Origin: Moniliella sp. 'wahieum'
Lineage: Eukaryota
Assembly: GCA_003971905.1 (NCBI GenBank)
Contig: RSEE01000095.1
Span: 62,001 to 126,000 of the forward strand
Direction of reading: 5' to 3'
Length of the DNA: 64,000 bases
The position numbers and the translations under genes were made by a program. The notes below the pieces were generated by a model that was not told the DNA's origin, did no database searches, and saw nothing but the letters and a program-made list of their open reading frames with translations. Positions 2,601 to 63,434 of this stretch are shown in pieces; within the stretch, counting starts at the first letter, position 1; each line of letters opens with the position of its first letter.

Positions 2601-3813
2601 GGACGGCGGCGGGGCGGGCTATGGTGGGGGAAGGCTGCTGGGGCCAATGTCTGGTCCCGAGGGCCCGCTTGGCTGGCCTCGGCCGCATGCGAGCAACAAT
2701 GAATCATGGATGTGGTGGTGGTGGTGGTGGCTCAGCAGCAGCGACCCATGGCTTGATGTGGAGGGCTGACGTCATGGTGGGATGCACGCGCACTGGGCGT
2801 GACGCGTCACGCGTCACACGTCAGGAGAGCTACGCTCGATGACGTAACCGGAATGGCCACATTCAATATTCAATCCACTCGACAACCTCGTCTCAGCGAG
2901 GACTCGGTCGGCCTCTCGGCAGTCTCCAGCTGCCCCAACCCAACGCAAGTCCAGGCTGTGAGGAATATGGTGTCGCCCAGCCGCCCCTCCTCGTTCCTTC
3001 CCAGGCCTCCACTCTACCACAACGGGCAGAAAGGGGGAGGTTGCGGGACTGTATGGGCCAGCCATGGAGTATTCGTGTCGAATCAGTCGATTCAAATGCC
3101 GCTCGCGACATGGTGATCCTCCAGACCTTTCGCCTTTCCACGCTCCACGCTCTGCCCGCCCCACACACAGTGTCTGTGCATAGCATCACAGGGATTGGGG
3201 ATTGGCGATTGGCTCAGCAGCAGGGGCAGTGAGGCCAGTGAGGCCGAGGCGTGTGGCCCTGACCGAGTCCTGAGTCGGAGCTTAGAAGCTTGAGACGCCC
3301 CCCCACGCGGTCGCTTGGGTACCTCAGACGCCCCGCAGACGCCCCCTGGAAGTCTCGCCTGGTAAGATCCCAGCAGACTCGGATGCTCATCTGTGTTGGG
3401 CGCTGGGCCCAGCAAGTCACGTGGCCCGACCCACCGCCACCTGCCGCCGGTTGCCGTCTCCCCTGGCAGCTGGGCGGTGCCAGCACCAGACGCTGTCTCA
3501 GTGCTCTGCCCCGCGCCAGGCAGGGGGGCAGTCTCTGGCCTCGCCCCATCTGGGCTGCAGTAATTCTCGTAATTCTCGTAATTACCCAGGAACCGCTGAT
3601 GTGCTTCGGCCAGGGGGCGCACAAGGGCACACAGCGGCGTTAACCCCGCTCTTCCACTGCCTCTTCGGCCAGCGTCAACCTTCAAAACGCCCACCGCAGC
3701 CATCTCCTTGCCATCGCTCCTGCACCCGCTGCCACCACCAATCATCACCCCCATCGCCATCCCGATCCCTTCCTCCTCTCGTCTCATTCCGTATTACCCT
3801 GCCCCCACCCTCC

Positions 3814-6625
3814 ATGCCAGACCAATCCCTGTCGCTTGGCTTGCTCCCCCACGAACTCAAAGTGCATGTGGCCCGGATGGTGTACCTGTTGGGGCAGCCG
3901 GCATCCGTGGCCGACACATTGCACCAGTTCCCCTATCCCCAGTCCTCGGCCGGAGCGACGTGGGCAGAGACCCAGCCCATGAAGAGCAAAGTGGCCCGGC
4001 ACACACTCTGGACCTTAGGCCTGGTGAGCAAGGCATGGAACGCTGCTTCCCGCCCCTTCCTCTTTCGCGAGGTACACATCGGGTGGCCGTTCAGCTTCAT
4101 CCTTCTGCTCCGCACTCTGGGCGCGAGTCATCTCCTGGTAGCTGCCTATGATACCCTGGGAGAAGCCAAGACGGTCAATATGGACCCCACCGATCCTGCC
4201 TCCTTCCCACGCATGGTCGCTGCTGCCGGTTTTGCCCAGGCCACGGGGCACCGCATGGTGGTTGCTCTCCCGGATAAAGGCAAGGCCCCAACGACCACCC
4301 ACCCTCACGGCTTGCCTGTCCCATTTGATGACACAGCCGCCTCCTCACCTGCGCCATTCCCTGTTCGGGGCCGCTTGCTTCCGGACGATGAGGCGAGCTA
4401 GAACTCATTTGGGACGAACTATTGTCCTCCGAGGTGACTGAGACCGAGACGGACTTGACAGACGAGTCGGACAACACGCTGCGCCACGAACCAAGCCGAA
4501 ACGTTATGTGGTTGCGCTCAAGCAAGATGGATCGTTGCGGCAATGTACGCCATTCTTTCTATTCTGGGTGTTGAGTTTTCGCATATGCTAACCTGCCAAA
4601 ACAAAAGTGCATCGCTATGTACGCCTCTTGGACTTCTCCACCTTCCATACTCAAGGTCTCAAACGGACTGTGGGACAAGGTGTGGTCGCGCGCTTCGTGA
4701 CCCCTTCACGTCTTCTGGCCTTGATCACCGCGGTGCGAGAGAACCTTACCTCTTTTGCGGCGTGTGAGACGATGGACTCGGCATTGACGTTGCCCGTGTT
4801 GGAAGCACTCTTGCTCCGACCCGATGACAAAGAGGCTTCTTGGCCGTCGGAGTTGTCCCCTCCCCGCACCAGTCTGTCTCCGACGGGCCAAGAACTGAGC
4901 CGGAGTCGAAGTCGAGGGCGCACGTTTCAGCGTCGGCCAGCATCGTTGCGAGGCGTCTCGCTCGAGTCGGTCCAACGGAGACGGAGTACCTCCCTCTCGA
5001 TCCGGGCCAACCTACAAGATCCCGACGCGCCACTAGGAAAGAAGCAGCTCGAAGCACTTGACTTGTGCGGGTGTGTGAGCAGCGTGTTCCAAGCTGCCCT
5101 GATGGAATTTGTTGAGCGACACCTCACTCGCCGGACTGAGGAGCCGTTTCCTCCCCCTCTGCTCGAACGTCGTGGACGCACGCTCACGCGCACGCACCTT
5201 GTTCCGCTCCCCGATGCCGTCACGGAGGAGTCAGGGGAAGAGTCGGAAGTGTGGACGTATGGTCCAAGGCCACTGACTCGCAGCTCCACCTACACGCCCC
5301 CCCAACCTCTCGACGTCCAGGCCATGCTGCAAGGTCCTCGTGCAGCATCGATGACGGACCAGTGGCGGTCCCGCTCCATGTCCACCTCCCGTCCTCGGCC
5401 ACGGCGAAGAGCTCGTTCACACTCTTCCAGTCAGGCACGGGAAGATACTACCGTGCAGATTCCCAGTGTGCAACGACTTGGGCTTAGCGGTGTTCGTGCG
5501 CCGACCGAGTGCCTGCACACATTTATCCTTGCCTTCCCCCGACTTACCCACTTGGACTTAAGTGGGACCCTGGTAACCGACAATCTGCTGGCGTCCCTTG
5601 CGGTGGGACCGTTGGTTCTTACCGCTCTCAGTTTGGCCGAGTGCAAACTGCTCTCCTCACGGGCCATCACCGACCTTGTCCTCTCGCCCGTGTGTGCTTC
5701 ACTTACCCAACTCAGTCTCCGACGTACCACCGACGGCCCGGCCTTGACCCGAGACGATGCGCAGCAACTCTTCTCAGCCCCCTTTCTTCGGGCGCTGTGG
5801 AATATTTGGACCTAGGTGGGTGCGGGCTGGACGATGACCTGCTGGAGCTGTTACCGGCCCAAGCGCACTTACTTGACCTTGGTCTGAGCTACAACCCGCA
5901 CCTGTCTCTCACCTCGATTGCCAATTGGGTCCTGAGCCGAGCGAGGGGGGTGGAAGTTCTAGATTTGGCCTACTCGTGTGACCAGGCGGCGCAGGGGCTG
6001 GTGACTGCGAACAAACTGTACACCATGCTCCTCGGTCCGCTCGGGGAGGCCAAGCCGCTCAGTTTGGCAGACCAACTAGCCTACCTAGACCGTCCGGACC
6101 TAGTGCCCCCGCAAGAAGCAGCAAGTAACCTCCTCGCCGTGGAACTTTCGCCTGCTGTGCTCCACACGGTAGGTGCGGGCATCAGTTCTTGGCGTGCGGT
6201 CCGTGGGGCCGGCCGACGCGGATGGGTGGTGGACACACGGGCGAAACGGGTGGAACAAACTAGGAAGAACGGCGAGACGGACGAGACGGACGCATCCATG
6301 AGGGCTCGAGCTATTCCTGAGTCCAACTCACCGTGTGCAACGACGATGCCTTCCCAGGACGAATGGGACTTGGTTCTCACCCGTCCTCCCTCACCTATCC
6401 CTTCCGCTGTACCCGTTTCATCTGTGGCCCCGGAGCAGGAACCGGGGGTGCGTGTACTTCGTTCGGAACCTAGTGCTCACACCACACCTTCAAGCGCTGG
6501 CGGACAATGACTTTAACCCTGCCTCGGTCGGATGGCACTCTCATAAGATGGCCATCGTTCAGCCGGGCGCCTTTCTTGGGAGAGAAGAGGGCGCGTATGC
6601 CCATGTTGCCTTTGCCCGTTCCTAA
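3814..6625 (+). CDS. Fungal F-box / RNI-like leucine-rich-repeat protein
   Basis: N-terminal LLPHELKVHVARMV (F-box-like); HRYVRLLDFSTF...ETMDSALTLPVLEALL; LRR units LEALDLCGC, LTHLDLSGT, LTALSLAEC, VEYLDLGGC, LLDLGLSYN. Intron ~4545-4607; several 1-nt frameshifts. Confidence 0.8.
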
Positions 6626-7160: not shown

Positions 7161-8024
7161 TGTCACGGGCTGCGGCGGACACGAGATGGTCCGACCGAAG
7201 CTGAGGCCCGTCTGCTCCGCACAGGCCCAGTAGAGCGTGCTCCGCAGGCCAACCGATTGTGATGGTTGGCTAAATTAAGTATCGTGGCCGAAGGGCCATG
7301 CTCAGCGCGACAACAGTCGCCTCCCGCCCAAGTCCACGTCAGCCGGCCTAAATAAGGCCACCGAGCTTCCAATGCCGTGGCGGCGTCTGCCGCCTCGTTC
7401 CCGTTTCCTTTTCCTTTCTCGGTCGCGCCTGCGGCGACCAACCCGCTTTTGACATGTCTTCCTTTCTACACCCCCTCTTGTATCCGTTTCCCTTTTGATC
7501 CTGCCTGTACCCCTGGTTGATGGGGATCTTTTCCCCCCCTTCCATTCTCGTCCTTCTCGTCCTTCTCGTCCTTCTCGTCCTTTCTCGTCATCCTCTCGCC
7601 TTCCCGTCTATCCTGTCCGGCTCCTGCCCGTTTCCAGCCAATTTATCCAGTACAGGCAGCTTCTCTTGTTAGCGTCCGACTTCTCCTCCGACCTCGTCCT
7701 CCAGCCCTTCGTCAGTCCAATCGCGCGAGCCCTCCTCTGGTCGCGGCGATTCCCAGTCTCTGTTGAGGCAGTGTTTGTCCGCCTCTGCCTCCTCCCGTCC
7801 CTAAGTCCCGGAGGCTTCAGACACGTTACTACGGCCCAAGCCGGTGCAGACGCAGCCTTGCCACACGTGCAGCCCCCCACCAAAGGCCTCTCCTCGTCCC
7901 TAGCTCCGCTCGGACGCACCAACCAGCCTAAGCCCGAAACTACCGTGAGTCGACCTACCGTCGCCTAAGAGATTGTACCCCAAAACCCCCAGGGCGGGCC
8001 CCCTGGCGGCGCCCGCCCGTGACA
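7161..8024 (+). mobile_element. Solo LTR, copy 1 (864 bp)
   Basis: Starts TGTCACGGGC and ends GCCCGTGACA (10-bp perfect terminal inverted repeat, TG..CA). 5-bp TSD CAGTA at 7156-7160 and 8025-8029. Homologous along its length to the reverse complement of 48683-49510. Strand is assigned only relative to copy 2. Confidence 0.9.
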
Positions 8025-11000
8025 CAGTACTCGGTTATAGTATGTGTGGCGAACGAAGACGCGACGGGGCGGTACGCCTGGTTCCGGCGCAGCAAATAGT
8101 AGGGACCCAGAAACGAAAACCGAATACACCCTCAGTACTCAGTAGGATTGATGCAATGGATGGCATAACTAATGCCCGCGACAGTAATCAGTAACTAGTA
8201 CTGTTGTGACCCGTGAAACCCGCGCTAACCTGCTAACCGGTTAGAACCCGACCCAGCTCGGAACCAGTATCCACCAATGTGATTCCTGTGATTGATGCGG
8301 ACGGTGGGCATGCAGAACTTTCAGAACCGCGAGCGACCCCTGAAAATCCAGAACAGAAGACGGGGTGCGCCAAAAATGGAGTGGCAAGCTGCTTCAGCCT
8401 TCAGCTTCAAGCTTCAAGCTTCAAGCTTCAAAAGCTTCTTGTAGCTTCCACTTGACGCTGACGATGACGACGGTGACTGATGTGACGGAAAGTGACATTG
8501 ACAGGTGACAAAGAGGCAGGTGACCCGGTGACAAGTTTCAATGTGACCGAGACCAGTGACCGGTGACACTTGACGCGCTCGACGCGTGACGGTCGAACCA
8601 TTTCAGGTGCGCGCATTTGTACACGATGATCGATGAACTGCGCTACGGAAGAAGGCTGTGGATATGCGCCCTGTCCCCCCGTCTTCCTTCCCTTGGTCAT
8701 ATACACTTCGTGTATACGTTCACAATCGATCAACGTTCACGATCACGTACATTCAACACGTTCAACGGTCAACGTGGTCAAGGTCAACGTGGTCAGCCAT
8801 CTCCACCGACCACCATCGACACATCAATTGCTGCTGACCCCTGACGGAGGTATCGATATACTCTTAGATCTTAACCTCTGTTGTGACGCATATGTGTGTA
8901 CTGATCGACTCTCTATCTCAAAATGCGTCGTGTAGTTTCCCATCGGTCACTAAGATCTTCAACGTTCACTCTGGCGAGATGATAGCAAAAAAAATCACGG
9001 TGGTGAAGAGGTTGCGGTATGTCTTCTCTATAGCTCAGTAAAGAGAAGAAGGGACAAGTGCGTTGCATACGAGGAGAGACGCTGTGAAGACGGGTACCAA
9101 AAAGACAATAAGGACCCCAAAAGAAAAACGACCGAACGAGAGAGAGAATGACGGACACAAGTGTGATGGACACAAAAAAAAACAGAGCAGAAGACCAAAC
9201 CAAGCTGGATACGCTTCGACACTGCGAGAGAGTGCGGAGGACCGAATCCTGAGCTACCGTGATGAAAGCTGAGACCTGAGAGATATTATGACGATGATGT
9301 GAGAGGGAAAGACGGTTTTTTGGAGGATGAGAGGATATATCGTTTTTGATAGTCCCTTCCATGGCTATCGACGCTCAACTCTTGAAGAATAACGCGTAAC
9401 GGGAGAGGTACAGCGCGTCTACCCACCTTAACGCTTAAAACGGTCTTATGCCTTACGCGTTTTACTCTTTAAACCTTACCTTATACCGTGATGGTACAGA
9501 CTGGCATGCAAGATCCAAAACATGCTACCGGAGGGATGTACCGCGCGCATTACCCTTCAACATATATCCATGGATATACGGACGCGCGGACGAATCTGTG
9601 TCCAATGCGAGCCATTGGGGCAACTAGTTTTACTTCAGGTACTGATGCGCGCATGGAGGGTACCCGGGTAAAAAGGTTTTGATCGTCGACTCGATCGGCG
9701 CTAGGTCTTAGATCCCTTAGGAGACTTATACGCACCCCGACAGACTCCGGTGTTTTCTTCGGGGCCTACCCTGTCGTTGGGGTTTGTTTGCCTTGCAGCT
9801 AGGCGATGGTGACAGTAGGTGACCAACACAGGAGAGCAAGTGACTGAAAGGTAGTGCTTGTGAGGCCTGAGGCCAATGATTGAGACCTGTGAGGTGTGTG
9901 AGGAGGCCTGTGGCCTGTAGCCTGAGGGGCCTGAAGCCCTGAGGCCTGACACGCTGAGTCGACGGGCACACAAAACAAATGGAGGGATAGGATAGTTTGT
10001 TTGTTTGTTAAAAGGTGCCAGCGCCATCGTCTTCATGCTTGTGTGGTGTGCATTTTATGCCAGCGATGATGTCAGCAATGTGAGCGTCGTGAGCGAGGAT
10101 GAGGGTGCGCCCCTGACGCGCGTGACGGAGATGTGCCAGCCCTGTGAGTACTCAACTGAGTACAGTACTGAGTGCCTCGGGCTGAGTAGGGGGGGAGGGC
10201 GAGGGCTATTCAAGCGCAACGTCCAAGTCCGACATATTAAGGGATACAAACACTGCTTTGAACTGACCCTCTGATGAGTCTCTTCCGCGCCGAGCGCTCA
10301 GCATGTGAGCTGTGAGCTGTGAGCTGTGAGCGCTGAGCCCGTGAAGGGGGAGAGTATATCTTTGAGTACCAAGTACAGAGAGGACCGAGTGTATACCGAA
10401 GAGTCTCCTGGAATAGAGGGAGTTCATAGTTGTTTGTGCGTTTGTTGAAGATGGCACACATACAGTGTTTTTGCCATGAGAATATATAATGCCTAACAGT
10501 GATATGCTGACAGAGCGCTGAGCCATCCAGTGGCGAAGAAGTGTTTCGGGGTTTCTGGTTGAGGCCTGAGGGTGTTGCGGGGAGGTTATTATGTGGAGAG
10601 TGCAAATAAGCGCTAGTAGTCGCTCGGGTCCATATATAGTACTGACCTGCGCGTTTTGGGGCTTTATAGTTGGGAGCCCGAACCCTGTTGCTGTGCTGCA
10701 TCCTGCCCGCAGGTCACGCGCGTCACGGTGAAGCACCAGTCAGCCGTCGGTGACGCGTGACGCGTGACGGCCGCGTGTGACGGACGTGACGCTGGTCCGT
10801 GGCCTACAACAGCACAAAAGAAACCCTGCTCTTTATTGTTTTTCTTTTGTGTTTTTCTTTGGACAAAAAACACACACAAAAAGATCTTCACCCACTTTGT
10901 CCTGTAGCTCCAGCTCGTGGCGTGTGAAATCATACTCATTCCTTGAAGCTTGAAGCTTGACGACGTAACGACTCACAACAAAGCCTAAGGCCTGAGGCTC

Positions 11001-16200: not shown

Positions 16201-16445
16201 ACGCATCTCACCAGTCTTGGCACGCACCCCCAAACGAACGCTTGCAGCGCACCAGCATGCCTCCCCTCGCATTCCTGCCCTCCACTCTACCTTCCACCGC
16301 ACTTCCAGCGCCCTCTCGACGCGCATTCGTCCATCTCCACGTTGTCTCTCTTCCCTCCCCCCTCCCCCCCCCCCCCTCCCCTCCCCTCCATCCATCCATC
16401 ACCCATCCATCCATCCCGCTCGCCAGATACGTCATAGTCCCGTCA
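16201..16445 (+). repeat. Dispersed non-coding element, copy A (with CCAT microsatellite)
   Basis: Two blocks match the reverse complement of 33298-33463; the 35-nt core is 33/35 identical. Confidence 0.8.
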
Positions 16446-16617
16446 TCTCGCACATCTCTCCTCCTCCTGTCTGGCGTAGATCCATGATCCGTCATCGGTT
16501 ACGCGGTACCCCCCAGCCACAAACATTGACACCAGTGCATTGCAGCCCCCAACACACGCACACATCGAGTTCCCATATCTGCTTGATGCATGTTTCTTCC
16601 GCTGGGGCGCGGCGAGC

Positions 16618-22713: not shown

Positions 22714-25700
22714 GTCCTACCCGCTGCATTTCCCCCCATTTTCTCACCCCAGTCCCTGTATAACGTTCAAGCCTGCTTCAACGTTCACGTACGTTGACGG
22801 TTCAAGCTCCAAGCTCCAGCTTCCAGCGTACTTGGCAGGTTTCCAGGGGATATGGCAGGGATAGCTTTTTGGCCCAGCAAGAACCGCTATATACTAGCTA
22901 TGCGGAAATCACACTCGCACAGCATCACAAATATCATCGAATCATCCACAGACATCTCATCTCTTCCTTATAATGTGAGTGGGTCCGTTTCTCTCGCGAA
23001 CGTTATCAATCACCGACACGATAGACCAGCCGTTTCGGTCATTAATTTCCCTGGGGTCTTGGTAGTAGGCTTTTCGATAGTGATGAACAAACTTCTGCAC
23101 GTTGGGCCGCTTGGGACGGGGGCGCCCGAATGGTCGTGGTAGTGCATATACATGTACAGTTGTTGCGTACGTTGCGATGATCGAAGAGAGGTGGCCGGTT
23201 ACTGGTTACCGGTTACCGGTTGTGCGTCTTCCTGGGCGTCTTCTCTCAGCACGTCAAAAATACGAGTCATGTTCAACGTTACCGGCGTTACGCGTTACGC
23301 GTTACGAGGCAACCCAGTAATCATGTATCAGTGCAATATCAGCATCAACACCACGCATCGCGCATCACGCATCGCCTCAAGCTACTTCGCCTTACTGTTG
23401 TGGTACAGAAGGGTACAAAAGGTACAGATCTCAGAGCGTTCAAACTGAATACTCAGACTGAGTAATTGAGTTCAGTACTCAACAACACTCAACGTTCAAC
23501 GTTGAATTGCTGGCAAAAAAAGCCACGTCGGAAATTTTGTCCTTCTCGGTCGGACTCGCACAGATAGTGGGTTGTGTTTGCACGCGTTGATGAGCGTTGT
23601 TCGTTAGCGGCCGGGCAGTGGGGGAAGGTCTGGAGAGAGAGGTTTGGTTGCCACAACACGAATAAGTCAAAGGTGAGGTCACCCGTGAGAGACCGAGGGA
23701 CGAGAGAGCCAAAAAGAATGCTTCGTCCGTCTTTGCAAACTATTACTACTGGTAGTAAAATTGCTTGCGTTTTTCTCTTTATAGTTTCTTAGTTTCGAGA
23801 TTTGAGATCTGAGATACGCCGCTGCCGTAGTCCTACGTACTCAGGCTGAGTTCATCGCTTCGACCGACACCTACGTACCTACTCCACACCCTTTCCAAAA
23901 GTCCACAACCAAGCTCCGATTGGTCCACGCTGTCCTGTTCCTACGTACACGTGCGCCTCGGTGTCTCAGACAAGCGTAATATAGCCCAACACGCTACACC
24001 ACGTTATACCACGCTACACCTGCTACACCATCCGGCCCCCAAGTTCTCTAATTATACTACCACCATCATCGTCATCCATCACATCCTACTTCGTTTCCCG
24101 TCTCTCGGGGGTGTTCGTGCATGCAGCAAAAGTAGGCCACAACAGGTCACAGCATTGGCGGTGGTGCCTGGTGGAGCATCTATCCGATTTCTTGCCTTGT
24201 CTTTTTATCGATTATCTCGCCCTTATCGATTACCTACCAGAATCCTGCTTTGGTCTTCAAGTTCAACATAGACGACATAACAAGGCCGTATAGTTCCCTC
24301 AGGGCCTCAGACCAGACCTGTGGCATGTGTGGCATGAGATGCATGAGAGGCCTATAAGCGCGGCCGGAGTGCGGCCTGAGCGCGGCCTGAACATCAGAAC
24401 GCGGCCTAGGTGTGGCTTGAGCGCATGAACCCGAGGCCCAACAGAAGCCAGCGGCTCCATCTTGAAGATCAAAGCTTATTGGCATCTGAGAGTAAGAATA
24501 GAGATACACCTATTTACCTATGTTGTTGATGAATGAGTTTGTGGCGTGCGTGTTGCATACAGGATTAATCATCGATTGAGTATGGATATTGGATGGTTCT
24601 CGGCCTTCGGGCTTTAATGGGCGGCTAGGCGCTAGGGGCTGTGGAAGTTGGGTGGCAGAAAGGGCAGCAGATCTACATAACTTATAGTTGCGCGTGCGCC
24701 CCGGTTCCGAAGTACGAGAGTGAGATGCATGGGACTGTGTAACACTGAGTACTGCGTACTGGTACTGTGACTGTACTCAAGGCTGGCTTAGCACTTAGCA
24801 GGGCATTTGGAAGATGGAGTTTCGATGCTTTCTTCGGCGCCGCCAGCCGTTTGCACTCGGGGCCGCACTTGGCCGCACATTGCTCCCTTTGAAACCGCGC
24901 ACGCAGGCGATCAATGATCGGTGCTTGACAAACTGCGTGACGCATGATGCATGACGCGTGACGAACAACCCAATTGGTGACTGGTGATTGATTAATGATT
25001 CACCGATGATTAATGATTAATGATTGCAGCTAGACCTACATAGCATCCGCTTTAGCCACACTTGATAGAGTGGGCCGCGCTGTATATGCGCTTTTACCTG
25101 TTTTTACACGTTGCTAGGCACTATAGTTACCAACTGTTAGGCCCTGGTAGTATAGGCTCAAAACTGGAAGATGTGCCGCTACGTAGGAACTGGACAGAGG
25201 GTCGAGGGTTGTAGATGAAGCATTCTTGGCATATGGCAGCAGGTTCCTCCGCTACCGGCTACCGGCTACCGTTGCTCGTGTGGGCCGCCATATATGCAAC
25301 GGTTTGCGCAGTTCCCGCTTTAGCTGCTTGGCAGTGTCTCTGAAATTGCCACTCGTCACGCGTCAGGCCCCTTCGGCCTGAGCCTCAATTCTGAGCCTCA
25401 GGGGCCTGTCCTCTACTTCAAGCTTCAAGCTTCAAGCTTCAAGCTTGATGAGCGCATTGAACTTCTTTTTGCCGTCCTTTTCGACCCGCGCTGGAATGTC
25501 TGTGCTGCGTTTGGTTGCTACTGTGGACAGCTTAGAAGGACTGCGCAGAGATAGAGGATCTTTCCACAAAATGCGGGAGGACGTGTGGCGCGTGACGTGT
25601 GAGATCTGAGATACGGCATTGCGCGCGATGGTTTGGAAGGAGTATGGATTAAAGATGTTTGCTGATGCATGATGTGGAGAGACGCCCAGAGGAGCTGTGT

Positions 25701-27264
25701 GGTGCCACCCGACACGGCACGGAACTGATGTACTGATGTACTGATAGAAGAAGTGGATTTTGTTGGATTGATTTTGTGGGTGCATATATCGATCGTGTGG
25801 ACCTCGGAGAGAAAGGCGGAGACGGTGGGGGAAAGTGTGGAATCCGCATGTGTACCCTGTACGCCTCCTCCGTATGTCACATGGCGCAGTGCCTTTGAAA
25901 GCGCATGAGCGTGCAAAAGGACATATGACAGGACTATCCCGACGCATTGCTTGACACATGACACATTGTGGCACTAAAATGACATGGACATGTGACATGA
26001 TGACACGTGGTGCGGAGGCAGTTATCACATGTCAATCTTAGGCGGCGCTCGTGGGGACGTGTGGACATGAGGCATGAGGTGCATGAGGCCGAGGCATAAT
26101 GCATGAAGCTTCAAGGTGAAAAGCAGATGGGGTTAAAGTGGGTCTGGATGTGTTGTATGTTCGCTGAACGCGTTGAACGTTGAACATGGAAAACTGTAGC
26201 GACGTCCTGGTCCACCTGGCTATGATAGAGACCGCAACAGCTGCTGAAGCTGGAGCGTTTAGGCCTTAGGACAGTAGCGTAGGCGATCGATTGCGGGCGA
26301 GAGATAGGCGTTGGTGGGAGCAAGACGAAGGCTACAGGAGAAGGCTATACATTGGTGGCTTACGCGGGTACGTGCGCAGCAGTCTTTGGAGCCCGCGGAG
26401 CCTCGGAAACAGTGAGGCCGGAAGTGCCCAGTGCCCGCGATGGGTGAAGCCAGTCACCAGCACCGTCGCAACAGAACACGGAGCACGTACTGTAACAAAA
26501 CGTGGGCCGGTGGGAGCTGGCTCAGCCTGAGCGCTGAGGCTGAGCAGCGTAAGAGTGACTAGTGAGCCCGTGGCGGCATCGGAAGGTCGTCGATGATCTT
26601 GATGATCGGTATCGATGCTGGTGTGGTTAGAATGGCAGGCGATAGGGGGAGGCGAGCGTGTGATTGAAGAACATGGTGTCCAGTATGTTCCGTACGCAGT
26701 CTCAGTACTCAGTGCCCTGTGCCCTGTGACCTTGAAGCTTGATGGTCGATGGTTGATGGTCGCTGATATGATGCATGGCATGCATGATGCGCCAAGGGCG
26801 GCAGCACATCCAGTGCGGGGGAAGTGCGCGCTGGTGCTGGCGGGGGCAAGGGGGCGGTGTGCGCGCTGGGTGGCGCCCAAATCTGTGATCGGAGGCGCAG
26901 GACCCTGGAGGCTTGACACGCGCGCCGTGCTGGGCCGAGCGGAGGATCCATGGTCGATGATCGATGAGGGTGAGCGCTGAGCAGGGCGTGGGTCGCCTGA
27001 GGCGTTGGAGGCGGAGCGGCGCAACCGTATCAGACCGTATCGACTATCCGAGACAGACGGGGGCAATGGGTCTTTTCATACTCTCCACGCGATGCCATCT
27101 ACGCCATGGGCGGCGCCGCTCTTGGGGGGGCCAGTCCGTCACCATTAATCCACGGCCCACAGCCCGCGCTTCTGCCCTTCTCCCCCTCCTCTTCTTCCCC
27201 CCGCCACCACCACCACTACCACGTCGCCCCCCCGCTTCTCCAATAGCTGCTGCTCTCCACGACG

Positions 27265-31846: not shown

Positions 31847-31886
31847 AGTGTTCAGCCGCCGACATCAGTGTTCAGCCGCCGACATC
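31847..31886. repeat. Perfect 20-bp tandem duplication AGTGTTCAGCCGCCGACATC x2
   Basis: Read directly from the sequence. Confidence 0.9.
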
Positions 31887-37300: not shown

Positions 37301-37566
37301 TGCACATGCACAGGTACGCGCACATGCTGTTGACTCGTCCCCACGTCCTCAGGACCGACTCGGGCGGGATGACGGAAGACCCGGTTCAAGCCCAGGCTCA
37401 ATCCGTCGACCCGGACGCGGACGACGCGGAGACCGAATTTGGACTGGGACTCGGACCTTACGACGCAGACGACGCGCACACGCCTGTGCGCCCTTCTTGG
37501 TTGTCCCTCGTGTGCTGTTGGCTCGAGCCAGTAGGGTCCGGTACGGTGTTGAAGCTTGAAGGTTGA
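34362..37566 (+). CDS. Full-length Pps1-like dual-specificity phosphatase paralog with catalytic Cys replaced by Ser (predicted pseudophosphatase)
   Basis: IVFPWLYG, GISARF..LHNFAGQ..SDLFIYCP, degenerate first domain KILIYSEDGYTGTS, then FTGSLASRILPNLYLG..ITHVLSVGES..VLVHSRSGTNRSVT..YVRSRR..IEPSLLGLWEL. Intron 35800-35870. Confidence 0.85.
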
Positions 37567-37843
37567 ACGTTGAAGGTTGAAGTACGGCGACCGTAACCGT
37601 AACCGTAACCATGCGTAACATGTACCAACAGCTGTTCTACTAAAAATAAAAAGGGTTCTGCTGGCAGAAACCCTTCACCTTCTTGTCTCCGAGAGATCAG
37701 AGTGGGGTTTGTTTGTTTTTGTTTGTTGTTGTTGTTTGGTCTTGTGTGCCGTTTGTGGTTTCGTTTGATTCCAATCCACATATACCCCGCTCTCTCTTTT
37801 TCGTTTTGCTTGATCGCCACACATCTCCGTCGCGTACACCACA

Positions 37844-37892
37844 TCCGTCGTATGCGTCGTATCCGTCGTATCCGTCGTATCCGTCGCATCCG
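37844..37892. repeat. (ATCCGTCGT)~5 tandem repeat in a T-rich 3' region
   Basis: Read directly from the sequence. Confidence 0.85.
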
Positions 37893-39077
37893 TCTTGGTC
37901 TTGGTTTCATGGCCCGATCTCCTTCCCCCTCTCACCTCGTGGTACCTACTGCCCCACTGTATACTTTTTTTCATATCTTGTTGTACCGTTCCAGTTTCGT
38001 CTTCCGTCATATTCATACACCAACAGTGGTATTCAGCTGGTACCTTCTTGTACCTTTTTTTGCATCTCTCTCCTCTTAGGCCTTACTCAATATGGTTGTT
38101 TTTTTGTTCACTCTTTCCCCTCTTTCTCTTTTTATCTTGTTGTCTTTTATCTTTTATCTTTTTCTCTTTGCTCGCCCCTCCATTCCACTGGATCCGTGGC
38201 CGTTGATCGTTGATCGCTTATCTCGTTTGTCGCGTACGTTTATCCTCGAAGGAAGACGTGCCGCGCAGCCACGCAGCCACGCATCCAGGTCCAGAGTGCG
38301 ATCCGGTACTCTACTGTGTCCACTGGTGAGTGTATCCATCCGCGTAGGGCAGCAAAACAACGGTTATAGGAGTATGGCTGGGAGGCGAGAGCGATGGGCT
38401 GCAGTGGGCTCCCTGTAGTGCTTTTTCCTCGCAGGTCTCAACCCAAAGTTTTCTATAACGTCTCTTCTCTTAACTAGCTTAACTTTCCTACTAGTAGTGT
38501 AGCGCCAATATTCAATTCGCCCCACGCCGGTATGACCTGCGCCACCCATGGTCGTATTTGGTAGATGGCCTTGCTGGTTCGGATCAACAGTCGAGTATAA
38601 TACGAAGACAAATCGTCGACGCGACCTAAATGACATCGCATGTTCGGTCCGACTGACCACTGCCCAACCGAGCGGGCCATGATGCACCGAGACATTCTAC
38701 CTGGGGCGGCGGCAAACGCTATAGCAACACATGGGAGAGGGCAAGCGGCATAGAGCGTTGAATTGTACAAGCTATGCTGAAACGCATCAGCTGGTAGCGG
38801 CATACGGGTCCTAAGGGGATGAGCTACCAGCAATCCACGCACGTGCTCCGTCCGTGGGGGCAGGCAGCACAACACATCACCACCGAGCGCGGCAAGGTGT
38901 CCAGCAAGGGACGTGGGGCAGCGTCGATGGCCGCGTATTTTGGGGAGGGAGGGCGGTATGATGGAAAATGGATGAACGAGAGGGGGGGTAGGGGGACGAT
39001 GGCAGCAAGGGCTACCAAGACGGAGAGTAGAACAAGGAGGAAAATAAGGTGCCTGTCTACCGAGTAGGGCTTCCTAG

Positions 39078-39555: not shown

Positions 39556-40811
39556 GGTGGCTGCACAGCGGACCAAGAGGTAACAGGGAAACAGGTAACA
39601 GGTCAGTCTGACGAGGTCCGGGCAGGGCACTGGCGCGCTACACAGGCAGCGCATGCGCACAGCGGAGGACATAGCATGGCCCGGCACGGGCGCGCCGAGG
39701 GCCAGGAAAGGGTAGGAGACGCACTGGATACTGAGGTAGCTTGGCGGCAACGGGTAACGGGTAACCTCTTGTCGGCAGCGGCAAAGCAAGTGGAGCGGCC
39801 AAGGGACCCAGGCGGCGGTGGACGGGTCGGGTTGCGGGTGTTGAGCTTGCGCCGTGTGCCGCAGCATTTAGTAGGGTTGGGTCCTTTTGTTTTCTTCTTG
39901 TCCGATGATTGATGTTCGATGTTCGATGATCGTCATTCAGCGTAACTTGCAGTATGCACGTTGCACCGAGCGCCTTTCCGCCCACAACAGCGGAAGGAGG
40001 GGTGGGATTGTGTGGGGTATACAGCCAGGGTTGCTAGTGCATGATGCATGATGCATGAGCATGAGGATCTGAGATCTGGATCTGATGATCGATGATCGAT
40101 GATCAACGAGATTGGAGGGGCCTCAGATCTCAGATCCACCAACCCCCTCCCTACTAGATTACCATGCCCCCTGCTCACTTTGGGCTTCAAAGCTTCCTTG
40201 CAGCCCACTGAGGATGGCCGCCTGCCTTGAAGCTTGACCACCGACCCGGATCCGTGTCGTCCGCAAAATCGGTGTCCGATCCTATGTCCAACTGGATATG
40301 GGCAATGGAGTTTCTCTCACTGTGTGGGCACAGGCACAGGCACAGACACAGACACACCAAACCCCTCTGTTGATTCGCCCAATGAAGATTTGACATTTGC
40401 CTCTATACAACAGGAGCAGTCGACGCTTTGTGCTTGTTGGCCACAGGCGCACAAAGGTGCTATACCACAAAGCAACAGGAGAGCTTGCAACTAACAGACA
40501 GATTATCGGGAGCGATTCCAAGGCAAGCAGGGGGGATAGAGTAGGAAATCAGGGTATATAGAGGGAGAAGAAACGAGGGTGGTAACTAGTAGTAGGAGTA
40601 GGTAATAGGGAGGAGGATAGGCAGTTGAGATGGAAATGCGGTAGTGGAGGGGAGTGGGTAATGCCGGGGGGCAAAAAACGTCACCCGATCGTCAGAATAC
40701 GACTCACGTTGGCAATTTTGGCAAGGGACTGAGGCGTGACAAAAACGTTTTTGGTACTGTAGCAAAGGCAAAAGAAAGAGAGAGAGAGAAGGGGACGTTC
40801 TTCAAGTTGGT

Positions 40812-45272: not shown

Positions 45273-48171
45273 GCGAGCGGGAGGTGGGGGAGCAGGTGGT
45301 GGGGTGGTGTGGGGGGGGGGTGGGGGTGGTGTGGTTGGCTGGGTTGGTGGCTGTGGGTGGTACGTACACCAGACGGTGTTAGTATTCCCTGCTAGCCGAC
45401 ACAGCTCCTGCTTGCAGACAATCGAAGGCGCATGAGACACGAGCCACAGTGCTGCGGTGCCATCTGCGGCCAGTGCATCTGCACATGCTGCGCGCTTGGT
45501 GCGCTGGCGCCCCAAGCGCTAATGCTAAACGACCAGACGCACTCCCGCCAGCCGAGCAGAACGACACGCTAAACGTTAATTCTATAATCGCCGTCCCCCC
45601 TGGGCCTGGCTCTAGGCCACACTGGCCCCCCTGCACCCTGGTGCGCAGGAGAGCAGTGGGGATGCAAGGTGTGGGCAGCAGCGCATGCGGCAAGTGTATC
45701 TGCTGTCGTGTGCAGAAGAAGCGCCGTGGCTGCTGTGGCGCACCGCCCCTACCAGCCTACCCCCTACCAGCCCTACCAGCCCTACCAGCCCTACCACGCC
45801 CTACCCTGCCCTCCCCAGCCGCCTGATGCTGATAGCAGAATGAAATGTTTGTCTCCCTGCAACTACCAACTACCGACTCTTCCCCTTCCACGCGCCTCCA
45901 CCCCCTGCAACCCTAAGAAAAACAGATGATCAATCATCGATCATCGCTGAAAGAACACAACCCACCAGCCGATATTGACAAAAGCATCCACCACCCACTG
46001 CGTGTGGCCCACCCGCACTCTGTCTGCCGCACACGTCCACCCCATCCATCATGGATGCGCCCCTTATAGCTTCCCAAGCGACCAGGTGGCTCCCTGTGGC
46101 TCCCCATCGCCTGTGCTCTGCGTCCATCTACTGTGAAAAAGTGTGTGCGCCCAGAACCTTCCCCATGACCACACGTACTATAGTCGGGAAAGATGAGTTT
46201 CGATCAGAGATTGGTTTCTCCTTCAATATCTATCGGGAGGCTTCCAGCTTCAATGTTCAAGCTCAAGATTCAATATTCACCCTTCCATCCACCACACAGA
46301 ATATATGTATGCGGACCAAGTGCGGAAACCACATGCGGCGCCAAAAGGGGTCTTGCGGCCCAAACAGCGTCTGACGATCGGGCCAAGCCAAGCCAAGCCA
46401 AGCACATACTGATATGCAGTCAAGCCAATCGAGAAGTGGCCGTGGAAGCACCTTGCAGCACCTCGTAGCTTACTAGCTCTTACTGTGCGTGGTGAGACCG
46501 GTGACTACGGTTACATATCAGATGCGGCTCATCCTTTTCCAACAACTCCGCAGACATCAGTGCATCATCACACCCTTGTTGGCTGATACACTGATGCGCC
46601 GATGGGCCCTGCACCTCCGCGGGTGTGTCAAGCAGTTGTCAAGCAGTTGTCAAGCTTCAAGCTTCGATCTCCACCTCATATACGTAGTCATCCACAGCCA
46701 TATAGCGTAGTAGGAACTCTGGGGGACTGGTAATTACCGGTTACCGGTTACTGAAAAGGCCCTATCATTCTCACAATAGAGCCTCTCCAGAGTAGACCTC
46801 CTCTCCGATTGCGAAACCGTACCCTGCATTCCCTTCCCGTCGGTGCGTCAAGCCTATTTTAGCATCAGCCCTTAGGCCTTAGGCCTTACCGGCCATCACT
46901 AGCACTTTCCAATAGAGTGCTGCTGCACCCATCACACTGCTCAGTAAGATCGTGCAAGCGGCATGATTATGATTGCAACCCAAAAGCTCAAAACACAGGT
47001 TGGTGCCTTTCGCCTTTTTCATGTTTTGCATTGCCCCCCCTGAAGATGAGGTCGATGATCGATGAGGCCGATGAGGCCTGAGGCCCTGAGGCCTGAGGTA
47101 CCATCTGTGCATCATGCATCATGTGCATCATGTTCCTTCCCAGAGGGAAAAAAGAACATTCTCCAGGCATCCTCCGTCGGTTAATATTTAATCGTAATCT
47201 GGACACCAATTCAATGCACTATTACCAACAGCTTCTGTAGCGCTCATATTGCTCTCTCCATAAGCGTCTCGCAAACGGTGCTTTTCCAAATTCCATCTTG
47301 CATTATATCACACACGCAATGACGTTCCATGGAAGGAGGGATAGTCGATAGAGGGCGCATGCACGCATGGGCTGTTAAAAAGCCGAAGGGCAATGGGACA
47401 AGCCATTGCAGGACAACGCCACAGATGGCACGGCTGCTCGCGCTCGCGGCTTCCACAAAACGCACATCAGGTGTTGGACGTTGATGGTACGTTGATGGTG
47501 TGGCAGGGAGGGCTTGTGCTGCCGACGCAGGCCTATGCGCCTATGCCTATAGGCCTACCTACTAAGCGCCTAGGATGACATGCTGTTAATGACGCGTTGC
47601 GTAACCTGCACGTAACCGGTAACCACACCAGCCACAAGCCACACCTGTTCGATCTGCGCATCAATCATCGATCATCACACTCGCATGTCACTGTGATATG
47701 TGACGTGTGTGACACACCACTGTGGCGTACCCAAGCTCCAAGTGTCATGCATGTCACACGTGTGGCGGACGTGTGCCAGGCCCGTTCAACGTTCAACTTG
47801 AACGTCCATCGACCATCTTACCTGCGATAAAATTTAAAATGCTGCTGTCGAAATGTGCAACTTGTGTTGGCGACAGACGCAAGGCCGATATAGATACGGT
47901 GTGGTAACCTATAGGGTATTCTCCCGCGCGGGAGCAGCAAGCAATATGCAGGCGCCTTTGTCGACGGTTTGCGGATCGTTTTTCTCCTCAGAGGGTCAGC
48001 ATACGACATCTTCAATCATTCACGTTTCTACCAGTAATCTAGTCCCAAAATGTCATACGCAAAATTGATCCGCCGTGCATCTTTTACGTCATAGACACGT
48101 GCCGACCGGTGCCACGTTCCCAGCCACCGGAGCCAGCAAGCATCGGTGATATTATTTCGACTTTCCGGCGT

Positions 48172-48262: not shown

Positions 48263-48682
48263 CAAGTACCAAGGCTGACCGGGCCGTGGGCCCGGTGGTC
48301 TCCTCGTAATCATTGCAAGCAATTTGATCAAGGGATCCTTCTCGCACAAGAGACATACCACGGAAGTTCTCCCTGATACGTTGCATCTCGGGCCCCAAGT
48401 CTGGGAGGGGCAGGCGTTCTGAGCTGCCTCAGTCATATATTCATACAGCGTATATGAACACATCCGAGTCGAGCACGGAGGGATTCCATCCAGAGGTGGG
48501 AAAAGGACGAGCATTATGACTTCCGTCTACTGATGCTTGAAAAAGCTTGACGGTTGTGTCTTCGGCGCTGTCACTGCCCCACTCAGAAGCCGACTCTGTG
48601 CCCCGTCCAGGGCTCCGGCTTCGGCTTCATCCAGCTCTCTTTCATGAAGCTCTACGAAACGCGGAAGGGGTTCATCCCACTT

Positions 48683-49510: not shown

Positions 49511-51207
49511 CACTTGTGGGTTGTCCGCAAATGTGAAGTGGGCGAATATGACTTCTGAGTCTGTAGCGGGCACAAACGTCGCGCCAATGTCGCGAGCTAC
49601 GAGCAAGGCAGCGCTTGGCATGTAAGTAGATTGTTGTGCATGATGGAGGAGAGAAGAGCTACGTATACTCATCAGCTTGGGTGTGCTTCTTGGCAGCGCC
49701 CACGGTTGATATGGGCTGAACGGATTCGTCTCCATTTGCCGCCATCTCGCCAGGATGCGTTTCGCGCCCCAGTGCCACGCGTTCACTCTATACCCCTTTT
49801 GTATCAAAGCACGTTCAGCGTCGTTCGCCTGACAGCCACTTCCACTCTCCTTACCGCCATCCTCATCTTTCTCCTCTATTGCTCTCTTTCTGGCATGATC
49901 ATCATGCCGCGCAATTCAAACCGGAACATACTTATAACCCATTTTTTCCCCGCCCATAACCCTCTCACCCCTCACCATCTACCACACCACACCTATACCG
50001 TTTGTCAACCTTCCATCATGACGCCCCAGTCCAGCCTTCGACCGTCGCGGCGCATTCGCCCGCAAAGCTCAGCTTTTCCCAAGAAGCGCAAGGTTCCTCC
50101 TTCCGTCAAGAGAACTGTCATGTGTGACATGAGTTCTCTTCCCATCGTCCGACCGCTTCGGTACGTTACCGCGCGCCGCGTCTCCCCTCAACCTTATGTA
50201 TGACGCAGAAATGAGTTGTGACGCGTGTGACGGCGCTGTTGATGCTGATGTTGATGCGATGGATCAAGCGAAATAAGAAACTGGACAATACCAAAATGCG
50301 CCCTTTGGTGATCTGGATAGCGCCAGGCTGGACGCCTAACCGCGCACCGAATAAAGCGGAGAGCTGTGCGACCACCGGGCAATAAGGATGTCTCGGCACT
50401 GAATACTATGGCAACCATCCTGACAGTGACATTAATCCCCACAGTGATGGCGACCCCATCCCAGAGTGTAGCAATAGTCCCATCACCACAGTGGCCACAA
50501 TGCCCGGTGCCTCTCCCATGCCGTCTTGACGGCAACATGAAAACGAAACCAACCCGTCGGAGACAAAAACGCTTAAGCATCACGCGGATGTTGCGGGACC
50601 GGAGTTGCCAAAATGTTGTTATGCTTCCAGCGCCGGAGAAAAGCGACTTCCAGTGCTGGAACAAGCGCAAAGCGACAACAATCTCAAATACTCCAGGGTC
50701 GCACTCAAGAACCTTTCTTCTCGTTGATCATGACGGGCAACGCGTGTTTACATGCCACCACTGCAAGACGGCAATCACAATAATGTTCAGTTTGAGTACT
50801 TGGAAAGAATTAACTACCGAAGAGTGTTATTGCTCAGATGGGTCAACACGTTTTCCGCTCACATGTCTATACCCTTGTACGCTCCTTGAAGTCCACGCGC
50901 GCTTCAAACGGGTTGGAAGCGAATGGCAGGCACCGGACGGTGCTAACCGGCAGTGTTGGCGACTGTTGTGCATTGGTTTCCTAATTGGGTTTGGCGCCAA
51001 CCAACAGTCCAGCAGCTCACGCCGTATGAGCACAGCCACTCCCCCCAATCATTAATCTCAGTAGATGGGAGGACCACCCCTCTCGATATTGAACGGATCC
51101 GGAGAAGGCAGATATATCTCCCTTCGCTGATTCCATGTCATTGGCAGAGCTTAAGGCTGGGACAGGGGGAACGCTACGTCTAATCCTAACCGTTCATCTT
51201 GCGGGGG

Positions 51208-56191: not shown

Positions 56192-57063
56192 ATTTGTCCT
56201 GTGCCCCCCTCGAATGGGACATGTGAGTCGGGTCTCCCATCCAGTCCCGTCTCCTATCCAGTCGTCGCCTGAAAGATAGCTATTCCGGTCGAAATGCTCA
56301 TGTTGACGATGCCAGGTGTGTGCCATCGCCGCGCGTAACGCTCTCGATGCGCATAAGGACTCAGTGCGGAGCCGGAGCCAGAGGCTGCAAGGATCGGACC
56401 GGAGGTAGTGGACAGTAGTGGGGCTTCTACTCCTGAGCGAGGTAGCTTTCAGCAACGAGGAGTACAGCCATCAGTGTGCTGCTCTGCTTCCCGGGCAAGT
56501 AGTTTGGGGGGCGGGGGTAAAAGCCCATCTGAGCGCGAAGGTAGGGTGCCCCCCTCGCGCGGATGCTAAGTTAGGCAAGTGGTGGACGCATTAAGCTGCC
56601 CAAATTGCCTCTGATCCCTCCCAGCCCGCTGGTAGCCGCCTATATTCTTTGCGACAGTCGCGTTCGGTTGGAAGAGGGACTGTGGTAGCACTGTGGGATC
56701 TGTACTGCGTCGGTGAACTTGGGTGCGTAGGCGAGGGCGCCTACATGTGAAAACTTTTCGCTCCCGTTTTTCTTCTCTTTTCCTTGTTCCTTCCCTGCCC
56801 CCATCCACTTTGCCCCTGATATCAACAACTACGCGTGTTGTGTGCCAATGGATGCAGGGAAGGCAATGGAGCGCCCCAGGCCCGCCCCTAACATCCACTT
56901 GCACCTTCCCAATCCAATACCTCGACAGAAGCCTTAGCCTGAGGTCGGTCAATTCATGAAAAAGGTGAAGCGAAAGTGAAGGTCATGCATCATGCATCAT
57001 GCATCATGCATCATGAACGTTCATCAACTTGAACGTTCAACGTTCATGGAATGAACAGTTGAA

Positions 57064-59345: not shown

Positions 59346-60798
59346 AGCTTGGAGCTTACTGCTGTTCGGAGGTAGGAGCGTAGTGGCGCAGGATGCGCAT
59401 GTCTATTCGCTTGTACATATCGAACTTCAATATTCAATGCTGGATGATTGACGTTAGTGACGGGGGTAGGACAGGTCAGGCCTGCGCACAACGGGTGCAG
59501 CACCCAGCTGGACAGCGCGAGAAGCGGAGCGGAGCCACCAAGTCTGCTGTTGCGACTACGTTGCTACGAATTAGCGCCACATCCAAGTGGGTGGCGCGGG
59601 CGGGTGGCGTAGATGATGTGTGATTGATGATTGATGATCGATGATGCGTGATGGAGAATGTGTGATGGCCACGTGATACACGTGATGCCCAGTCTGAGTA
59701 CTGAGATATACTGAGACTCAGTTACCAGTACCCACAGCACTCGGTGTACTCGCTGCTTTAATGCAACTCACTCTTCCATATGGCCGCCATGCACTGCCCA
59801 GGCGACGATATCCAAGATCCAAGAAGCAACGTGCGCATGTAATACCAGGACGAAGCCGCCCGCAGGGGTGGCAGCGTGGCGCGTCAGGCACGTTGGAGAT
59901 GTGAGGAATGTCGGGAACGCAGGCGAGGAAAGGCAGGACGCGCCGAACAAGGCGATGATCGATGATCGACAACATGACCCTCGTCCAGTTTCCAAGGATC
60001 AAGTCGATTAAGGCCTAAGGCCCTAAGACCTAAGGCCTAAGGACGCCCCGAATGTGGCGTCGCGGGCACTGGCACTACGAGAGGCAGTTGGTGGCGCTTG
60101 TTCGGCTCGGTTCGGCTCGTCCGGCTGGCACCGTGCATGGCGGCCGAGGCAGTGGCGGAGCAGCACATGGGCGGGGCTTGCTAAGATCTGAGATCTGAGA
60201 TCCGAGAGCGCCACACAGGGCCCCAGAGGACAGCAGCGCAGCGCAGTGCAGGTGGGGGCAGCGGCAACTGGTAACCGGCAACATGTGCCACATGCATGGA
60301 CAACAAGGTGGGGTCTCCTCCTGCGCCTGTTACTGCGACAGCTGGGCGGTGAACTTCACCAGCACCCGTATTGGATACATCGCCATGGGCCGGAGAACAG
60401 TCGCCGAGGTGGCCCCTGGTGGCCCAGGGTGGCTCCGGTCTTGGTTCGGCCTATCTGTAAACACATCTGTCCTGTCTCGTCATCGCGTCATCGATCGCCA
60501 CCGCGTCCTCAGCAGAATCATCGATCATCCATCCCCCTTGGCGCCAGACCGTCTCCAGCACGTAGCATGTCCCTCTCGCGCGTTACCGCCACCACCGTCA
60601 TCCCCAATTGCAACTTCCCCTCTCTTGCGGAACCCGTCCCGCCGCTATCGCAGCCCCATCCTGGTCCAGTGCGCGCCCCGCTTCGCTCTTGCTTCTGCTG
60701 CCGCACCCCCCGTCGTTCGCTCCTCTTCCCGCCCCTGTTCCGTCCACCTCCAGTGACTCCTCCATCAGCAGCAGCTGCTGCCCCTCCCATTCTGCGCC

Positions 60799-61872: not shown

Positions 61873-62903
61873 CTACTCCCAGTAGGGCTTCATGTAGACC
61901 TTGAGGACCCCGGTTTCGATGCCAGCGGCATCGATCTGGTGGATTTCCGCCTCGGACAGTTGATCACCCGACTGGAACAGCGTCAAGATTTCCGGCAAGC
62001 GTTTTTGCGGCTGGGTCGAGGTGGTAACAATGATCCCGTTGGTCTTTTGACGAGCCCAGAGGTGCAGGACGCCAGCCTCGGTGCCCCGGCTTGGCCTGGG
62101 CAATGGCCGTGACCGCCTTGCGGATCGGACTGTCAGCCGACACGCTCTTGTGCGTCAACGGTGCCAGCGAGGCGTACACGGCAATTGTGATTCCGTGCGC
62201 GCGCGCATAGTCCAACGTTGCACGCGTCTTGTCGTCGCCCCACAACAGGGGGTGGAACTCAATCTCGTTGAGCTCGATCGGGTACTTGGGGTGCGCGTCA
62301 ACCACTTGTTGCAAATCAGGTGCAAGCCAGTTGCTGACCCCAATGGTTCTAGCACAGCACAAAAGTCAAATCGTTAGTCAATCGTTCGCCAATCGTTAGC
62401 CAATCGTCCCCATCCGCTCCGCATCCCAGCGGGCGAAACGAATCCAGCACATTCTCCCCACATTCGCCCAACACTCACTTGGTCACTCCTTCATCGCGCA
62501 GCGCCTCCAGCGCGTTCCAAGCCGCGAGGTTGGTGGGTTCGCCTCCCTTACCGCGCGGCGGGTGGTGGAGGAGGAAGGCATCGAGAGCCGAGACTTGGAG
62601 GTCAGTGCGCTCCTTGCGGCCCGAGGCGAGGATGGCGTCGTGGCCGTCCTTGATGGGGTTGTTGACCTTGGACAAGACATAAATGTCGCTGGGCGGGATG
62701 CCGCTGTTGCGGATCCCTTCGCCGTTGGAAGCCGAGTTGCCATAGACCTCGGCGGCGTCGACACTGCGGAAACCGAGCTGGAGCGCTTCGGCCACAATGG
62801 CGCTCGAGGGCTTGTTGTAGAGCGCGGTGCCGCTGCCAAACGATAGCACCGGGGCGGGCTTGGTAGGGTTGGAGGCGAACGTGATGGACGGGATGGAAGG
62901 CAT
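61873..62903 (-). CDS. Aldo-keto reductase
   Basis: FGSGTAL, GFRSVDAAEVYGN, YVLSKV, LDAFLLHHP, WNALEALRDEG..TIGVSNW, NEIEFHP, YASLAPL. Intron 62349-62478. Confidence 0.92.
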
Positions 62904-63434
62904 GGTCAGTGCGATGGGAGCAAGGGGTGGTGGAGGGGAGACACGAAGGAGGTTGCGGCGTATGGACGGAAACCACCCAGCCGAGCACATGACGCCATGG
63001 CCACCAACCAATCGCACACGCCCAATTGGATCTAACCCTGCCAGCATGATCAGGGCTGCCGCTACTGCGCCAATAAGTCCGAGTTGCTGACTAGCCCACT
63101 AGTCAGGCGAAAGACGCTGGCGCTGACGCGCTGACGAGCGTCTGTAACGTGCTGCAACCTGCGGCAACACCCGAGCTCTCAATCTGATCAATTGGACTGA
63201 ACGTATTTCAAAGTGAAAGAGCTTGGGCCGGTTAAACGTTAACAAGTCTGTTAATGTTGTAACCCCGGTAACCCGGCAACCCCGTGCCCTCGTCTCGTTC
63301 GCTCTCGCACCTCTCGTTGCCGGCCCCCGACTCCTACCAACAGGCTCCTCTCAAGCAATCCTAAACTTCGGGGAGGGGGGGAGGTAACCTAGCGCCTCTG
63401 GGTGCAGCACACCTTACAGACACCAGTCATGTTA

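Follow-up and report, generated by a model that had tools for sequence, protein, structure and literature searches.

A pattern of T-N-A triplets (N, any base) and 4-bp palindromes recurring at a 7-bp period marks the non-coding DNA of a 64,000-nucleotide stretch of Moniliella sp. 'wahieum' (contig RSEE01000095.1 of assembly GCA_003971905.1, forward-strand positions 62,001 to 126,000; hereafter the window), and the closest described systems are DNA transposons that leave footprints when they move. As described in PMC5499845, hAT, Transib, MULE and RAG systems form hairpins on the flanking DNA, Artemis-type host enzymes open them, and joining of the ends leaves footprints. Ac/Ds footprints in Candida albicans consist, according to PMC5873905, of short deletions and insertions of inverted (P) bases centred on the element-adjacent bases, with 28 joint types among 128 events, two of which predominate (35 and 18 events). 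Duplications of 7 bp are attributed to hAT7, a group of hAT families from the rust fungi Puccinia and Melampsora that cluster with Ac and Tam3 (PMC12730594), to Kyakuja of Laccaria (PMC12730594), to hAT families annotated in Repbase with a '7-bp TSD' (target-site duplication; PMC4455052) and to Galileo, whose palindromic consensus GTANTAC has a free centre base (PMC4168063). KDZ elements of Cryptococcus are given an 8 bp duplication (PMC11588098).

An earlier reading of the window (the original prediction) had described these heptamers as an intergenic grammar in which T-N-A is followed by any 4-bp palindrome. We lean, with somewhat better than even confidence, towards a mutational scar rather than a code: the heptamers would be footprints left on excision by a cut-and-paste transposon that forms flank hairpins and has a 7-bp target, nnTNAnn. 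As in flank-hairpin footprints and the P nucleotides of V(D)J coding joints, both copies of a duplication are kept together with flank-templated P bases, and a few predominant joints are accompanied by rarer variants with small trims (PMC5873905 and PMC5499845). Unlike these footprints, the duplication here is 7 bp long and centred on T-N-A, a single joint type is dominant, scars fill the whole window at very high density and pile up in tandem arrays, and no element lies in the window.

hAT7 and Kyakuja are DNA transposons of Basidiomycota that duplicate 7 bp, the length that we infer here from the scars, and hAT7 clusters with Ac and Tam3 in a superfamily that uses flank hairpins. The inferred length is compatible with both groups; the available text of PMC12730594 gives no target consensus for either, and for hAT7 it offers consensus sequences of the elements without target sequences. 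Galileo, a member of the P superfamily, likewise makes an odd 7-bp duplication that is palindromic around a free centre base (PMC4168063). Its consensus is a different one, however, and its hosts are animals. P-element excision chemistry is not known to involve flank hairpins. Micro- and minisatellites formed by slippage share with the window short tandem arrays of variable copy number, and slippage may extend the arrays here, but the founding event in the window is a rule-bound 7-bp insertion, which is beyond slippage. In the literature searched, we found no description of genome-wide stacked footprints or of a T-N-A heptamer rule.

The heptamer pattern is real. All 16 coordinate and sequence pairs listed as examples in the original prediction match the window exactly, and the predicted excess of 7-bp periodicity was borne out: the window contains 79 perfect tandem runs (at least two copies of a given period) of period 7, against 3.0 expected from third-order Markov simulations of the window, which also supplied the expectations for period 8 (10 runs, 0.8 expected) and period 5 (98 runs, 49.8 expected). 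A 6-bp palindrome occurs in 35 of the 79 period-7 runs, and all 35 are of the form A-N4-T, while random units of period 7 would yield about two palindrome-bearing runs by an arithmetic estimate. The spacing from one T.A site (T, any base, A) to another is exactly 7 in 245 cases compared with 94 in simulation, and base identity at lag 7 reaches 0.2843 against 0.2561 (z = 17). The 14 of 16 possible palindromic cores first reported rise to 15 when canonical words are counted, with TATA alone missing. The statement that nearly every intergenic stretch carries such arrays was too strong, as 21 of the 32 two-kb bins hold at least one locus, and for the heptamer family ascribed there to Ustilago maydis we found no support in the literature searched.

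The basic unit is a single 12-base word rather than an array. This word reads T-N-A-c-d, then d'c', then T-N-A-c-d, where d'c' is the reverse complement of the two bases adjoining T-N-A, and its mirror form is abTNA-b'a'-abTNA; the core is thus templated by the local flank, and the word accounts for the A-N4-T palindrome as well as for the 3.5-bp dyad. When any trinucleotide XYZ was allowed in the frame XYZcd-d'c'-XYZcd, 109 words were found compared with 4.2 in simulated sequence, led by TGA (27), TCA (25), TTA (10) and TAA (5), each with an expectation of at most 0.05; the trinucleotides ranking next are other phases of the same arrays. The canonical words merge into 73 loci, of which 49 are single 12-mers and 14 span at least 19 bp. 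Outside the T and the A, no sequence preference was seen in 44 isolated events (maximum 0.32 bit), and the centre base is used as available, with C or G at 55 of the 73 loci compared with 74% of the 2456 T.A sites. An identical count yielded 98 word loci for the window and 8 for a 931 kb control of unrelated metagenome sequence, made up of loci that match the kynureninase open reading frame (ORF) of the window at 26-37% identity. Peeling perfect canonical insertions away one at a time removed 91 events, amounting to 637 bp.

The centre base of the word shows how the second copy was made. In the frame TNAcd-d'c'-TN2A, N2 equals N in 106 cases (2.2 expected) and its complement in 9 (2.0 expected), so that the copy of the centre base is direct, and we rejected an inverted copy running through the centre. 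Direct 7-bp repeats centred on TNA are separated by one P base in 10 cases (0.1 expected) and by two P bases in 9 (0.05 expected), and no TNA-centred repeats of 9 or 11 bp separated by one or two P bases occur in the window. Plain tandem copies centred on TNA number 80 at a length of 7 bp (0.4 expected, arrays included) and show no excess at a length of 3 (92 against 85) or 5 (4 against 4.1). A 3-bp T-N-A duplication of the PIF/Harbinger or CACTA kind was rejected on these counts for TNATNA and also by reasoning, because the inverted filler copies bases that such a duplication would not put on that flank. A Transib-like 5-bp duplication was rejected as well, since TNA-phased 5-bp tandems are not in excess and the P bases are flanked by full 7-bp copies.

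Between such full 7-bp copies, 8 of the 14 two-base fillers are inverted flank bases, for which the chance share is about 0.06-0.19. The same holds for 6 of the 8 one-base fillers, a weak support given a chance share of 0.25-0.5, and for none of the longer fillers (0 of 2 with three bases, 0 of 4 with four). We counted the joint spectrum on both strands, outside arrays and at sites where ab differs from d'c'. The canonical joint, in which one flank with two inverted bases meets the other flank minus two (net +7), accounts for 64 cases against 0.35 expected, followed by 24 perfect 7-bp duplications (0.2 expected), joints with a net gain of 6 bp in two forms (14 cases with 1.0 expected, 11 with 1.5), a net +8 joint (10 against 0.0) and a net +9 joint of full copy, two inverted bases and full copy (7 against 0.0). 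Taken together, these results point to a primary event in which 7 bp around a central T-N-A were duplicated directly, the joint receiving 0-2 inverted (P) bases. A fixed-length direct duplication kept at the site, flank-templated P nucleotides at the joint and heterogeneous joints are all features of excision footprints, yet one joint type is more dominant here than in the Ac/Ds data of PMC5873905. The loci are catalogued below, with the strand left unspecified.

2790..63280: span over which the 73 word loci are scattered, a few lying outside it (1236, 63432, 63454).
56983..57015: longest rule-following array, unit TCATGCA in 4.7 copies (ATGCAT plus C).
25416..25446: array of unit CTTCAAG in 4.4 copies (AAGCTT plus C), with a 10-bp perfect palindrome at its end.
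8403..8431: array of AAGCTT plus C in 4.1 copies.
8392-8405: non-palindromic 7-bp duplication, CTTCAGC in two copies with central TCA, directly before the array at 8403.
40038..40136: adjacent arrays with cores ATGCAT, AGATCT, ATCGAT and AGATCT, together with a net +6 variant.
47052..47132: cluster of ATCGAT, AGGCCT (twice) and ATGCAT words.
47061-47076 and 47117-47132: two joints of copy, two P bases and copy (full 7-bp copies), both within the preceding cluster.
23204..23306: two arrays, ACCGGT plus T and ACGCGT plus T, opening the densest stretch (23204-26982), which holds 23 of the 73 loci.
59953..60202: cluster of ATCGAT, AGGCCT (two words) and AGATCT.
9861..9872: a canonical word standing alone (TGAGG CC TGAGG), taken to record a single event at a single site.
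3228..3243: net +9 joint, AGTGAGG, P bases CC, AGTGAGG.
50217..50232: net +9 joint, TGTGACG, CG, TGTGACG.
38469..38484: net +9 joint, CTTAACT, AG, CTTAACT.
24333..24348: net +9 joint, CATGAGA, TG, CATGAGA, with P bases readable from either flank.
10304..10331: non-palindromic perfect repeat, TGTGAGC in four copies with central TGA, read as duplication without P bases.
26066..26088: CATGAGG in two copies (exactly 14 bp, central TGA), then a joint of copy, TG and copy.
37548..37582: words overlapping the stop codon of a phosphatase ORF, with cores AAGCTT (canonical) and AACGTT, and two copies of GTTGAAG.

Not every heptamer array obeys the rule: the longest period-7 array of the window (33109-33177, GTGGCTA in 9.9 copies with 88% matches) has neither T-N-A nor a 6-bp palindrome. 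Tandems of period 9 are also in excess, with 20 perfect runs against 0.6 expected (for example 37843-37894, 45747-45805 and 7545-7589); two of them are really joints of a 7-bp copy, two P bases and a second copy, and most of the others have unrelated units.

We infer from the scars a single abTNAcd site before the event, a hairpin intermediate and a transposon as the agent. A DNA transposon of the cut-and-paste kind, or an enzyme of transposon origin, would insert at nnTNAnn and duplicate 7 bases, and on its departure both flanks would be sealed as hairpins. The cell would then open these hairpins about two bases from the tip, giving two inverted P bases, and join the ends. In the commonest joint, one 4-base palindromic overhang would be kept and the other removed, turning abTNAcd into abTNAcd-d'c'-TNAcd with a net gain of 7 bp, and this product would hold the palindrome A-cdd'c'-T and two T-N-A sites. 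A new hit on a site of the product, or ordinary slippage, could add an identical 7-bp unit, by which arrays would grow. The original prediction had also offered a hairpin-primed or template-switch process writing a dyad every 3.5 bp; the hairpin part is on the right lines, in that the joints carry inverted bases as hairpin-capped ends leave them, while the dyad is a by-product of direct duplication. The agent may be a single wandering copy or a few, and since a conservative element leaves one scar per jump, many scars are possible without a visible element. Clusters such as that of the densest stretch would fit as well, because local re-insertion would place scars nearby.

The scars keep largely out of coding DNA and differ in age. 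Pfam-supported ORFs make up 8.4 kb of the window and would be touched by 9.6 loci on expectation, but just one of the 73 does so, at the phosphatase stop codon; within ORFs of at least 300 amino acids there are 2 loci against 18.5 expected. The two copies of a sequence resembling a long terminal repeat (LTR), at 7442-8028 and 48679-49224, contain zero canonical words. These results agree with what had been noticed for coding exons and LTRs, and the absence from coding DNA is expected anyway because an insertion of 7 bp shifts the frame. Scored by their mismatches to the canonical word, 72 loci have none, 66 have one and 153 have two, against 0.4, 9.3 and 108 simulated; decay thus affects about as many copies as remain perfect, and the events are of many different ages. 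Substitutions tallied in the fillers are transitions in 13 of 15 cases. Those in the two inverted bases favour the palindrome centre by 16 to 5, and about 7 of the 16 are changes of CpG to TpG or CpA, which largely explains the asymmetry; we therefore did not count fillers with one P base, as opposed to mutated canonical fillers, as a joint type of their own. The CpG bias in the fillers hints at raised CpG mutability, possibly through cytosine methylation, in non-coding DNA.

Several results weigh against the excision of a transposon. The scars are very dense, with at least 91 perfect events and about 57 one-mismatch loci above background among 2456 T.A sites, and they seem less varied than the Ac/Ds joints described from yeasts. 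In hAT targets the T and the A usually lie towards the ends of an 8-bp duplication, not one base to either side of the centre, and the footprint itself does not reveal the transposon superfamily. Among the 288 ORFs of at least 100 amino acids in the window, no transposase family was matched at E <= 1e-5, and the window has neither a hAT or KDZ transposase nor CA..TG termini, as in hAT7 and Kyakuja. Searches of the window for insertions bounded by a 7-bp duplication and carrying inverted ends gave nothing convincing. No 7-bp indel distinguishes the two LTR-like copies, and the window offers no pair of sites before and after an event.

In the first search for elements bounded by 7-bp duplications, 7 candidates were obtained, the best of which was one array matching another. 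Examination of 2068 TNA-centred 7-bp repeat pairs left a single candidate outside arrays, at 5229-5435, where direct copies of the 7-mer AGTCAGG (central TCA) enclose 193 bp whose ends form a perfect inverted repeat of 8 bp. We regard it as probably due to chance; it lies within an uninterrupted ORF of 407 amino acids and folds no better than shuffled sequence (z = -0.31).

Processes that need no transposon deserve attention. It is possible, though distinctly less probable than excision, that at nnTNAnn a break staggered by 7 bases, or else template switching in two steps, is repaired with a short inverted copy, through a host nuclease, a domesticated transposase or an error of a replication or repair polymerase. 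This would explain the same word, centre-base, length and joint evidence and would fit a 64-kb window without an element, and the high density and one predominant joint type would suit a constitutive cellular process. However, a fixed 7-bp direct duplication with symmetry around a free centre base is what a dimeric transposase or integrase characteristically leaves in target DNA (PMC4168063). A template switch faces further difficulties, as passage through the centre would invert the centre base, which is rare (9 against 106), and one base of return homology would leave the strict T and A unexplained. No cellular nuclease is known to us that cuts with a stagger of 7 bases. That no mobile element is involved and a host enzyme, for example a domesticated transposase, cuts nnTNAnn with a 7-base stagger and seals the ends as hairpins seems to us unlikely.

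Readings that take the heptamers for a code, or for ordinary repeats, agree less well with the words themselves. The original prediction had suggested a factor or DNA shape reading TNA-N4-TNA, and it is indeed the case that the words are confined to non-coding DNA and that T-N-A is always a stop codon (TGA, TAA) or its reverse complement, which at a period of 7 cycles through the three frames; in a variant of this proposal, TGA or TAA every 7 bases supplies stops in all three frames. A regulatory or structural grammar maintained by selection is nevertheless very improbable in our judgement, since an array of binding sites should have a conserved core independent of its flanks, and the core here follows the two neighbouring bases with 15 of 16 cores in use. 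Moreover, most loci (49 of 73) are single words, decay is abundant (66 one-mismatch loci against 9.3 expected), the net +6, +8 and +9 variants are off the period, and the frame shift accounts for the coding absence without any such function, although some arrays may have been co-opted later. Ordinary replication slippage in heptamer microsatellites that tend to form hairpins, where palindromic units would expand more readily, has in its favour that arrays of up to 4.7 units exist and that quasi-palindromic units could stabilise slipped strands, and it probably contributes to array growth. As the sole origin we give it very little weight, because the isolated 12-base word, a 5-base repeat plus two inverted bases, is shorter than two units and cannot be created by slippage, which would proceed in whole units and follow no sequence rule; neither the strict T-N-A nor the joints of copy, P bases and copy would be explained. 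An assembly or sequencing artefact, for which nothing was found to speak, is hardly credible, as the words avoid coding DNA and their substitutions resemble those of aged DNA (13 of 15 transitions, about 7 at CpG).

The remaining contents of the window include genes and several repeats. We recognised two dual-specificity phosphatases, a RasGEF protein, kynureninase, ribosomal protein S19e, a PH-domain protein, UQCC2, an aldo-keto reductase and a nucleotidyltransferase of the poly(A) polymerase family, perhaps a tRNA CCA-adding enzyme. The phosphatase ORFs (3-500 and 36583-37563) lie 36 kb apart on the same strand, and the second has one weak homologue only in a large protein collection. Protein Atlas matches of the kynureninase ORF are mostly bacterial kynureninase clusters. 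The two LTR-like copies are inverted relative to each other and 41 kb apart, and where they match best they are 93-95% alike. Their main difference is that an array of a 9-bp unit (TTCTCGTCC) is longer by 45 bp in the first copy, and no adjoining retroelement coding part was recognised. A perfect (GGAT)17.5 microsatellite at 33327-33396 has a short inverted counterpart 17 kb away at 16387-16416, and their unique flanks are alike (16400-16448 and 33295-33343, 92%), and the two may belong to a minor family of dispersed repeats with a tetranucleotide array inside. At 31847-31886 a 20-bp sequence is perfectly duplicated in tandem (2.0 copies); it is unrelated to the heptamer rule.

If the heptamers are indeed footprints of transposon excision, the window would be an unusually dense natural record of excision and hairpin repair, with at least 91 perfect events in 64 kb and a similar number decayed, from which the preferences of a fungus in hairpin opening and end joining could be read straight from its DNA. 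A rule-bound 7-bp insertion would then be among the main indel classes shaping promoters and untranslated regions here, and it would provide a concrete route from non-repetitive sequence to heptamer tandem repeats and 6-bp palindromes. Should a host enzyme be responsible, the organism would possess an endogenous, sequence-ruled insertion process that creates tandem repeats and palindromic sites de novo in non-coding DNA. For annotators, the excision reading would carry the caution that an intergenic 'grammar' can be a scar pattern rather than a code.

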